This document shows positions 34,301 to 37,300 of a stretch of DNA of 58,572 nucleotides, piece by piece (position 1 is the stretch's first letter; the number at the start of each line of letters is the position of its first letter). This stretch comes from Macrostomum lignano. Lineage: Eukaryota. Both the position numbers and the translations under genes were made by a program. The notes under the pieces are model-generated. The model was not told where the DNA came from. It searched no databases and saw only the letters and a list, made by a program, of their open reading frames with translations. Where the stretch lies: assembly GCA_002269645.1 (NCBI GenBank), contig NIVC01002385.1, positions 1-58,572 on the forward strand, written 5' to 3'.

Positions 34301-37300
34301 TATCCAGTACCCTATCCAAAACCAATGCCCCCTCCTAATTTCTAAACCCCAATCTTATTCCCCGTCTCACTTACCGCTTTTAAGGCTCTAGCCAAGGCAA
34401 AACCCGCATTCAATGCTTTGGCTCTACTCTTTTCTTGCTGTGGCGGGTACAGCGGGAGGTCGTTAGACCTAGACCGCTACTTCTTGGTGGCCAGAGGGCC
34501 GCAAGAAGGTCCCGCCACCTCCTGTTGTGTGGGGTTGGATTCGGGGTTCAGATTGGTTATTGCTATGGAACGGGAGCTGATTTATAAATGGCTGAGTGGT
34601 CCCCGGAAGGGCTCTTGATTTGCCAATAGTTCCCGCGGGAGGGCTGTTGTGTGGGGTTGGATTCGGGGTTCGGATTGGTTATTGCTATTGAGCGGGAGCT
34701 GGTGTTACTTACCAACTCCAGTCATATATAATCTCGCGCACAGCCGGAAGGAAAGCTCACAGTTTTTGACAGTGAACAAAATGGAGTTCAAGACATTATC
34801 GAACAGATTTCGAATCGGCGTCAGGTCGCACTCGAAGTGCATCAGCTTCAGAAAGTGGTACAAATTTGCCGAAGAGTATCGACCAGGTCTGCCTGGCATG
34901 GAGCTCACCGTCCACCAGTTTTGCCACTTGGGCAGCCTGAAGGAACGACTGGAAGAGTTTGCAAGAAAGTGTATCGACGCGCAATGCCTTCTGGGCGGCA
35001 ACAGGCAAGTGGTTGTGCAAAATGGCGTAATCACACTCTGGCGCCTTCCAACTGTACTCGGACCGCCGGTGCACCTAAGGCACCGCCGGTGCCTTACCGC
35101 TTCCTACTACACTTTGGCGCGAAGTCTGGGCTCAAAAGCAATGGGTCCTAGACAAAATTGACAAGCGAGAGCCTCCGGTCGAGCCGCCGATCGGCAATCC
35201 ATGGTGGATGGGATACCACCCTACGGAATCTGAAGAGTGTGCAGCATGGGCAGCAAAGCTTACATTTGACCAACTGATGCAAGTACCTGACAGGCAGTCG
35301 GCAGATTGGGACGACCACTGGGGGGCCTTCCAAGCAGTTCAGGCTGAATTTAGAAAGAGATTTACATTCGAAACTCTGGAAGAGCCACCAACAGCTGAGA
35401 AGAACCAACAGCCTTCATTCCACCAGCCACCAATGAAGCGACGCGCAATGCATGAAGCGACAACTGGTCATTTCGTCAATTAACTTTTTTTTAATATAGT
35501 TTTGAACCATAGTACTGATCATGCACTGTTGTATATATTGCTTTGTCAATACTGGCCATAATATTTCCCCATCATGCTTTGATTCCTGGCGATAATACTG
35601 TTTTGTAAATACACGCGACGGGCCTTAATACTGCCCTTCCATTCTTCATAAACTTTTTTTGTGCTAATACGAGCTTTTAACATGTAATTTTATGCTTTGC
35701 AATCCATGGACCTGCCAATAAAATAAAAAAAACTTTCATTTTCGTAAGCATTGTTGCACAAACATAGTCGCATTCGCGTTTATTTTTTCTTATATTTTGT
35801 ACACAAAAAATACAGAAGTAAAGTTACAGCAAAAATATTATTATTATTACTCGGTGCATAGGCAGATCTCACTACTACTGTTATGCCGTAGAGGAGCTCA
35901 GTCAGAGTCCAGCAAAGTAGGTTCGGATGCTTGATCTGGTAGCAAAATGCGAGAGAGGGCATCAGCTGCAGTCTGAGCCTCAACCACGCTGCGAGCACCA
36001 GCTATTATACAGCGATATGAATGAAACAAAATCAACTTTACAGAGGCAGTAAACTCGAGCACAAGTCCGTTAAACATTTCCGGCTCATAGGTGCCCGATG
36101 CGGCCATTTAGACTTGACTTCCCCCAACCGGAGTGGATGCGGACCCGCGGGAAAGGCCGTCACAGAGGTAATAGTCTTGATGCGAATCTGGGGCAGACTG
36201 GTCAATCGCAAGAAGTCCGCACACAGCTTCACAATCTTCTCCGTCTCTGCGAGAGCTTCCTCCAGGCTTTTGGCTCCACAGACAGACACTTGTCCGGTGG
36301 GATACACCAGCGCGGTTACTCGATGCTGCCCGCTCTTCATCACCACTGCCAGTGTTCGAGGATGAACCAGGCGATGGCGGATTGTGTGATACTGAGGCAG
36401 ATGAAGAGTCAGGAAATTCGCTAGTTGTGGCAGACCCACCCGGGTCGCCAGGTCGGCTCCTGTCACGATGTTTGTCACGCGAATTGTTGCGACCATCTTT
36501 AGACAATCGAGAGAAACGCCAGTGCCTGCTGCAGATCGCTACTTTTATAGACCCGTAGCCGCGAGGCCGCAGCCAATCAGCGTACAGCGCCACTTTGGCC
36601 AGGGCGCAGGGTAGCACGTACTTTGAGGCACTCGGAAAGGCTAGGTGTGCGAGGTCGTAGACAGGCTGCAGCAGCAGACGCGACAGGAACTGGCACTTGA
36701 CATCCCCCTTGCTAAATATCGGGCCTTGCAAGTGAGAGATATCGCTCCAGAGACAAGAGTAGGGTCGGAACCCACTCCTGTCCCAGTCTAGACCGTGCCG
36801 CTTATTGGTGAGCCAGTAGCAGGTTCGTCGCTGTCCTCGATCAAAGAGCTCAAAGCTGTGCGGCGGCTGGTAGCAATAGTAATGAGCCGTCGTTTGACCG
36901 CATGCAAACTCAACCCATGCAATTTCCTTAATCACAAAGTCCTCTGTTTTGTAGAGGTGCGGAAATCCTTCAAAATCAATGACAATCATCTTGGCCACTT
37001 GATCCACTTGCCGTATCCTTTCTGAGACTGAGTCTTCTTATAGCCTTGCAGTCGAGGTTTTTTAGGACTGGACTTTTCTTCCCGAGGCTTTTCCAGCAAT
37101 TTTGTAGTGTTCAGACCAACTGCAGACAGAGGCACGTGGTTTTCTTGAAGACACGTAACAAACTCATTAATCCCATTCGGTGGCTGAAGGTACTTAGAGT
37201 ACGTATCTTTAACTATGAAATGCAGCAGGTCCACGATTTTGAGTTGTACAACGGTTTACCATTGACAGAAACTTCATACGTATCATCTATGCTAATCGAC

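Follow-up and report, generated by a model that had tools for sequence, protein, structure and literature searches.

A TBP-like gene conserved in two Polinton families

A contig of the flatworm Macrostomum lignano (assembly GCA_002269645.1, contig NIVC01002385.1, positions 1 to 58,572; this whole stretch of 58,572 nucleotides is called the window) contains a Polinton, a virus-like transposon with well over 100 copies in the genome, that carries, on the minus strand, a gene for a protein resembling the TATA-binding protein (TBP). Such genes were conserved in two Polinton families of the genome, family A, to which the window copy belongs, and family B, and a TAAGAA box common to most capsid and packaging genes occurred alongside this element TBP, a combination that appears to be new here. 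On balance, we lean towards the view that the element TBP serves as the element's own core-promoter factor, which would bring host TFIIB and RNA polymerase II (Pol II) to the TAAGAA box.

The original prediction, made from the letters of the window, had read two TBP pieces on the minus strand, and both exceeded the curated cut-off of PF00352 (22.9 bits), with 35.1 bits at 36041-36496 and 28.6 bits at 35901-36107. The two-repeat 199-aa core that it had assembled from these pieces was seen in natural sister copies as a single uninterrupted open reading frame (ORF) with two TBP repeats (65 bits; 65-86.5 bits in 2 stretches over the natural copies overall). The proposed join by a single A was misplaced, as natural copies put the break near 36090-36095, about five codons downstream of 36107. 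A search of the genome, in which 150 of 185 candidates were scored and the counts are thus lower bounds, gave at least 151 TBP-like matches; among the matches listed, about 35 loci closely resembled the window copy and make up family A, and about 108, at 38-47% identity, make up family B. Thirty of the close loci were fetched, and a recognisable start was found in 25. Of these 25 copies, 16 held a single ORF of 198-216 aa that includes the two repeat motifs, 3 more could be read through at 189 aa, and the frame was broken in 6, among them the window copy. A twin locus on contig C291, which matched the window over 9819 columns at 99.6% identity with 18 mismatches and 10 gap openings, carried an intact TBP-like gene, and when contigs of four of 24 listed public runs (X9, X10, X17, X18) were compared with the window, those of three runs differed from it at the TBP frame break. 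Therefore, this break, which is not universal, is an assembly error or private to the window copy. At the other frame breaks of the window, contigs of at least one public run also differed. In one copy (L023 982-2046), the neighbouring exonuclease-like ORF and the TBP gene were fused in frame; the public gene model P0024 fuses the same two, probably as an annotation artefact.

The order capsid gene, protease, ATPase, 110-aa ORF, 200-230-aa ORF, exonuclease-like ORF (a label that we presume from the acidic N-terminal motif of the ORF at 36108..36989) and TBP gene was the same as in the window at all four family B loci read, with one small ORF broken in two of them. Among the matches listed (up to 150 for either gene), the ATPase lay 1-4 kb upstream in 112 of 143 TBP-like loci and the TBP-like gene downstream in 112 of 137 ATPase loci; some loci without the paired gene sit at contig ends. 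The two families are about 40% alike, and the N-repeat of TBP (38-40% identical), the capsid protein (37-42%) and the ATPase (42-44%) are conserved about alike between them. In eight family B copies, the ratio of nonsynonymous to synonymous divergence (dN/dS) of the N-half was about 0.1-0.2 (dN 0-0.14 vs dS 0.05-0.78), and the C-halves shared 44-73% identity, their synonymous sites being saturated or nearly so. In 11 intact family A copies, the corresponding ratio of polymorphism, pN/pS, was 0.71 for the N part and 0.20 for the C part, on small counts. These sequence comparisons indicate that the TBP-like gene is under purifying selection and fixed in two old Polinton families.

The genome codes for a canonical host TBP (L035) and also has a TRF2-like gene (L036). 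The host TBP core is intronless (L035 310-969), with three loci of identical score. The identity of element TBPs was about 25% with host TBP and 20% with the TRF2-like protein of the host. Outside the genome, A-like (P0004, P0005, P0155, P0007) and B-like relatives (P0008, P0156, P0167, P0168, P0043) were found; those in other samples were 60-75% identical and lay on short contigs. In two quick trees of 93 and 46 rows, in which long branches meet, families A and B, the outside relatives and P0129 grouped together at SH-aLRT (approximate likelihood-ratio test) 91, apart from host TBP. Twelve TBP matches from viral_contigs, 21-30% identical, did not group with the Polinton proteins in the quick tree. 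No Polinton gene was found near 53 loci from viral_contigs and metagenome_contigs, and capsid and ATPase queries against viral_contigs brought up no relative, so that we only infer that the relatives in ENA, Logan and JGI are Polinton-borne. Six of the 53 loci, with ORFs listed, resemble archaeal, giant-virus or protist DNA. In the Atlas, the family B protein matched TBP clusters only. Other short divergent metagenome TBPs (P0129, P0041, P0042, P0077, P0144 and small eukaryote-dominated Atlas clusters) could be further element-borne TBPs.

As two families keep the gene, in the same order, under purifying selection and far from host TBP, it is not a one-off capture. A dead capture of host TBP drifting neutrally, with which the broken frames of the window copy and five more of the 25 close copies and the high pN/pS of the family A N-half would agree, is hardly credible given the low identity to host TBP, the separate placement in the trees, the intact majority of copies, the purifying selection and the relatives in other samples; this explanation is already largely refuted. 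Taken together, the TBP-like gene is real, conserved and probably functional.

Fold and residues of the element TBP

The predicted TBP fold was found by both profile and structure. An intact natural copy matched solved TBPs at E 7e-10 to 1e-6, and its fold was predicted with a pLDDT (per-residue model confidence) of 93 from an input alignment rich in cellular TBPs. When the model was used for a structure search, all listed PDB matches to rank 44 were TBPs (template modelling score, TM, 0.64-0.73), and viral proteins of BFVD were also among the matches. The element TBP is a bare core of 188-199 aa without an N-terminal extension.

Residues were tabulated for 14 element-type proteins, with positions mapped through host TBP and given in yeast numbering. 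N69, V71, T112, L114 (as Leu), E186-P187-E188, F190, L193 and F207 were retained, and the EPE of the TFIIB-contacting stirrup was present in 14 of 14 proteins. The intercalating Phe pair of the C-repeat was kept, and that of the N-repeat was replaced by Tyr and His/Trp (Thr/Pro in the other register). Changes common to both families were F116 to Tyr, K120 to Gln (His in P0043), V122 to Ser/Thr and T124 to Cys, the Tyr, Gln and Cys lying in the N-repeat strands, and Q-N-M-V to K-T-I-T, V203 to Lys and V208 to His. These DNA-facing substitutions were invariant across proteins about 35% alike. According to the accessible text of PMC1636458, V203 is one of the three altered-specificity residues of TBPm3 and concerns TATA position 2. 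Helix 2, the surface for TFIIA, TAF1 and Mot1, was acidic in family A and its relatives and basic in family B (KRAARRF).

For family A, most residue calls of the original prediction held, namely the YEPE stirrup, the C-repeat Phe pair, Tyr at F116, the loss of the second-repeat Asn and the acidic helix. The called loss of F99 depends in its detail on a one-residue register shift, the position being Thr or His; on one register it is His in family A and Trp in family B. Escape from TFIIA, TAF1 and Mot1 through the helix had also been proposed, which suits the acidic helix of family A but not the basic helix of the more numerous family B. No PF00382 match to TFIIB was found in the elements, where a very divergent TFIIB could sit among the unnamed ORFs; genome-wide, this profile gave 15 matches on six contigs, none of them among the TBP-like loci listed.

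A TAAGAA box upstream of element genes

Upstream of element gene starts, the most frequent 6-mer was TAAGAA (18 of 29 starts). In four cassette stretches it occurred 26 times in sense and 0 times in antisense orientation, and of these hits 4/6, 7/10, 2/4 and 5/6 in the respective stretches lay within -115..-30 of a start (binomial p 0.002, 3e-5, 0.05 and 2e-4). Before the structural and packaging genes, its spacing from the start resembles that of a TATA box. In the last 160 nt of ORFs it was counted 7, 6 and 6 times in three gene sets vs synonymous-shuffle means of 2.0, 1.8 and 2.3 (P 0.002, 0.0035 and 0.01), and Lys-rich protein tails were ruled out as its cause by these synonymous-codon shuffles. 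The box is encoded variously as Leu-Arg or x-Lys-Lys, spans a stop codon or lies between genes, and upstream of the family B integrase it lies in non-coding DNA. Its first half is mostly TATAAG in family A and CTTAAG in family B.

The canonical TATA[AT]A[AT] gave 3, 0, 1 and 2 sense matches in the cassettes, and this near absence ruled it out as the shared promoter. A canonical TATA box preceded the TBP-like start in 26 of 29 close loci with a start found, and the stretch holding TATATAAT also precedes the protein-primed DNA polymerase B gene (pPolB) in the other arm of a twin copy. The box as a genome-wide host signal was rejected, as CTTAAGAA..ATG gave 9387 matches vs 10530 for the reversed control, without enrichment. 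Over the whole window WTAAGAA was mildly above chance (22 vs 14.0; reached in 3 of 100 shuffles). From its sequence, TAAGAA is unlikely to be a splice acceptor or branch point.

Proposed mechanism and rival explanations

In the reading that we favour, host TFIID would first transcribe the genes behind canonical TATA boxes, namely the PC4-like gene, pPolB and the family A TBP gene; in family B, with the TBP gene behind its own box, first expression would be leaky and self-reinforcing. The element TBP would then bind the minor groove of W-TAAGAA through its altered beta-sheet, the kept stirrup would recruit host TFIIB and Pol II, and the capsid, packaging and integrase genes would be driven from the box. 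Such a scheme would place herpesvirus late-transcription logic in a 190-200-aa protein without a viral polymerase or viral TFIIB, and the likeness suggests that the element genes may be switched on much as in herpesviruses. Altered DNA specificity gains indirect support because a non-canonical box is shared upstream of element genes. To this extent the earlier idea of an element-specific initiation factor with altered specificity is upheld, through the TBP-fold gene, the kept stirrup and, indirectly, the box; the helix argument offered for it is not general.

Several observations weigh against this reading. The interval -115..-30 was set with the data already in view, and one family supplied two of the three gene sets. 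Within this interval 11 of 29 starts had no box, the protease and the 198/230-aa ORF lacked one in every gene set, the family A ATPase was preceded by TATAATGC instead of TAAGAA, and one box (35787-35793) follows the TBP stop and precedes no gene. The protein has lost basic DNA contacts at the positions of K120 and R196 as well as the Phe of F99, and the alignment behind the structure model was rich in cellular TBPs. In family B, TAAGAA also precedes the TBP gene, so that a clean early-to-late switch would need a priming route. Family A boxes are mostly TATAAGAA, one change from TATAAAA, and wild-type TBP has been crystallised on TATA variants with a single change, G(-26) or T(-30) (PDB titles), so that host TBP may read them.

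These last points, the near-TATA boxes of family A, the crystallised variants and the family B TBP gene behind its box, fit a promoter role for the box in which its reader is host TBP/TFIID or some other factor of the host. The element protein would then be a working initiation factor that has no sequence preference of its own and supplies TAF-free TBP where host TBP is scarce or blocked, e.g. in germline or stem cells; the identical altered residues in both families despite the differing first half of the box agree with this as well. We consider this explanation unlikely, though deserving of attention, as family B boxes have three differences from TATAAAA, the canonical motif is nearly absent from the cassettes, and invariance of the DNA-facing substitutions at such low overall identity is not expected from drift.

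The stirrup is the best-kept surface of the protein and several DNA contacts are lost, as would be expected of a decoy whose stirrup captures host TFIIB, Brf1 or regulators of TBP and which dampens host transcription. The box would then have another role, as a 3'-end signal or as an initiator for a helper-virus polymerase; TAAG is the core of the baculovirus late initiator, where genes are tightly packed, the region upstream of a start also holds the 3' end of the gene before it, and one box follows the cassette's final gene. Both repeats, the N69/V71 and T112/L114 positions and both C-repeat Phe are retained, however, and TBP-TFIIB contact normally requires DNA. In addition, the family B integrase box keeps a constant distance to the start (41 and 59 nt) and not to the previous stop (~180 and 270 nt). 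A decoy therefore fits less well than a promoter factor, and we regard it as rather improbable.

Mosaic C-terminal lobe and overlapping frames

Some 340-360 nt into the TBP gene, the DNA identity of family B copies falls from ~98% to ~60%, and at least eight different C-terminal TBP lobes begin at this one point (L031-L034, L038-L040, L042), which is the junction of the two repeats, near the end of the overlapping exonuclease-like frame. According to these alignments, several old C-terminal lobes, with differing downstream polymerase arms, were joined to a shared left arm with the frame kept each time. Exchange of the C-terminal repeat along with the polymerase arm would also suit a fold recruited for a non-transcriptional job, such as binding the terminal repeats, jointly with the PC4-like binder, during replication or packaging, PC4 folds serving as single-strand DNA binders too. 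Such a role would leave the kept TFIIB stirrup and the upstream box unexplained and seems very unlikely.

The exonuclease-like ORF is open across the whole TBP N-repeat, over 129 codons in family A and 110 in family B and in the same relative frame. Synonymous shuffles gave P about 0.01 for this openness in each family, and synonymous sites in the overlap had diverged about half as much as those in neighbouring genes; in some copies the overlapping frame is stopped earlier. Dual coding of the overlap is possible.

With the promoter-factor reading as its core, a wider proposal is held tentatively: animal Polintons may run a private transcription programme consisting of a minimal re-tuned TBP, its cognate box and host TFIIB and Pol II, in which TBP and box co-vary between hosts and the C-lobe is swapped between lineages.

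Structure and setting of the Polinton in the window

The features of the window are listed in Table 1. The element was predicted to be a Polinton bounded by terminal inverted repeats (TIRs), which is borne out by its inverted repeats, AGTAGT termini, 6-bp target duplication ACCCAC, pPolB and integrase. The host ABCC/MRP transporter gene (window 28000-47300, minus strand) has introns filled with minisatellites. The public gene model P0006 has element sequence, including the TBP part, spliced onto ABCC exons, probably an annotation artefact. A spliced host joint, 33634-45100, spans the element in runs X17 and X18; contigs of these runs also cover the element, though these contigs carry neither strand nor level and, for a many-copy element, could be DNA carry-over. 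In X17 and X18, 519 nt of the window (38831-39351) are skipped, with 14 other letters in their place; the skip is unlisted for X9 and X10 and is perhaps a transcribed deleted copy.

In a twin copy (L103 375-1431 vs window 33755-34767) the terminal repeats extend over ~1 kb at 87% identity and have in common a TATA-bearing stretch that precedes the PC4-like gene and pPolB. The PC4-like protein was found in both families, adjoining the left terminal repeat behind a canonical TATA (L101 2630-3358; L102 2290-3063). PF02229 exceeded its cut-off in the family B copy L102 (32.7 bits), and the protein may represent a second transcription-cofactor or single-strand-binding fold. The 198-aa ORF had neither a Pfam nor an Atlas match. 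For an A32-like packaging ATPase, only P-loop matches below cut-off were obtained in the window and in family B; the window ATPase is 44-46% identical to that of family B. In family B copy L033, the protease orthologue matched PF00770 (23.8 bits vs a cut-off of 21.3) and pPolB matched PF03175. The family B capsid orthologue, about 40% identical, was modelled as a double jelly-roll and matched the PBCV-1, mavirus and Sputnik capsids at E 1e-15 to 1e-11.

Table 1. Features of the Polinton and its TBP-like gene (window positions unless a locus is named)
Feature	Position	Strand	Remarks
Polinton, family A, shortened copy	33755..44576		pPolB incomplete, right-arm repeat short; in host ABCC/MRP intron
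Left terminal inverted repeat	33755..33913		partner 44420-44576; 91-99% complementary over three pairs
Canonical-type TATA TATATAAT	34725..34732	+	56 nt before PC4-like gene
PC4-like gene	34781..35161	+	PF02229 below cut-off; shorter than open frames of most sisters
TBP-like gene, two repeats	35898..36496	-	frame-broken near 36090-36095; intact in most sister copies
TBP/exonuclease-like overlap	36108-36496; L033 4519-4850; L034 4201-4532	- in window	open frame
Exonuclease-like ORF	36108..36989	-	conserved; acidic N-terminal motif; without Pfam match
Canonical TATA box TATAAAAG	36542..36549	-	53 nt before TBP-like start
198-aa ORF	36986..37581	-	conserved; broken in window, intact in sisters
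TAAGAA box before exonuclease-like ORF	37035..37041	-	in 26/26 close loci with start found
110-aa ORF	37541..37873	-	conserved
P-loop ATPase	37876..38562	-	AAA-type Pfam matches below cut-off; packaging ATPase by position
TAAGAA box before 110-aa ORF	37901..37907	-	6-mer search
Adenain-type cysteine protease	38519..38992	-	weak profile match in window
Major capsid protein	39000..40258	-	broken in window; lower end approximate
Small basic Lys-rich ORF	40258..40521	-	read from twin copy L103
TAAGAA box before major capsid gene	40358..40364	-	6-mer search
Probable minor capsid protein	40503..41285	-	candidate single jelly-roll penton by position alone
TAAGAA box ~140 nt before basic ORF	40654..40660	-	same place in both families
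Retroviral-type integrase	41282..42166	-	PF00665 51.1 bits; true start lies further upstream
Two TAAGAA boxes before probable minor capsid gene	41290-41296, 41373-41379	-	6-mer search
Protein-primed DNA polymerase B, middle part only	42987..44415	-	PF03175 above cut-off; loose ends at 43029, 44415
Right terminal inverted repeat	44420..44576		partner 33755-33913

Significance and comparison with known systems

The TBP and its presumed cognate box address how Polinton capsid genes are controlled, and hence whether these elements have a real virus cycle, and they offer a direct and simple test in a laboratory flatworm. Few eukaryotic proteins change as little as TBP, and natural variants in many lineages that keep the stirrup and change the DNA face make up a series for core-promoter specificity. 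If the wider proposal is true, the pair would be the smallest known viral late-transcription system, the elements would provide a natural set of orthogonal TBP-promoter pairs, and Polintons would time capsid synthesis like true viruses.

The elements share with Polintons, Mavericks and adintoviruses the TIRs, the 6-bp duplication, pPolB, integrase, a putative packaging ATPase, protease and double jelly-roll capsid. Replication and virion modules are exchanged among Polintons and adintoviruses, as far as the accessible text of PMC8502044 and 10.64898/2026.10.13.758929 goes. TBP is not among the eight vertebrate Polinton core genes named in the text consulted of PMC8097293, and in that of PMC10675990 TBPs occur only in mirusvirus-like elements; further background is given in PMC10005294 and PMC4028283, likewise available in part. 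A TBP of this kind is not wholly undescribed, as a figure legend of Starrett 2021, in the section on non-animal datasets, already lists TBP in a polinton-like virus (PMC8502044). The portions of that paper at hand describe no box or function for a Polinton TBP, nor does its text supplement, so far as seen, mention TBP. Terms for TBP or TATA were absent from the accessible portions of PMC11131425, 10.64898/2026.06.19.733378, PMC10748475, PMC8097293, PMC11161782, 10.64898/2026.10.13.758929 and PMC11296320. A literature search, with Repbase and subscription journals outside its scope, yielded no account of a conserved Polinton TBP or a Polinton promoter box.

Cellular TBP and TRF2 (PF00352) resemble the element TBP in fold, two repeats, stirrup and C-repeat Phe pair; the element TBP differs in having no N-terminal extension and in the family-wide changes of its DNA-facing sheet.

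Most nucleocytoviruses have their own RNA polymerase. Nearly all of them encode their own TFIIB, whereas none was found by PF00382 in the Polinton elements. Their TBPs are also two-repeat and divergent, often with the N-lobe regulator signature lost, and in most viral TBPs the stirrup glutamates are lost, a TFIIB of the virus's own accompanying them, in the text available of Ravarani 2020 (PMC7221094). No sequence kinship between element and nucleocytovirus TBPs was found among the 12 viral_contigs matches in the quick tree.

The closest functional likeness is to ORF24 of the herpesvirus KSHV, in which a nuclear double-stranded DNA genome, host Pol II, a TBP fold of its own and a non-canonical box before structural genes come together; the late promoter box of beta- and gammaherpesviruses is TATTWAA (both from the accessible part of PMC12529657). 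In that account, ORF24 operates as part of a complex of six proteins, makes direct contact with Pol II and, by prediction, is not compatible with TFIIB. What sets the Polinton protein apart is its bare core of 190-200 aa with the stirrup kept, and its 188-199-aa core does not match the large herpesvirus type with a Pol II-binding N-terminal domain and partner activators. By analogy, the element TBP may at most work like the herpesvirus viral TBP, as a simpler protein that would stand outside that system.

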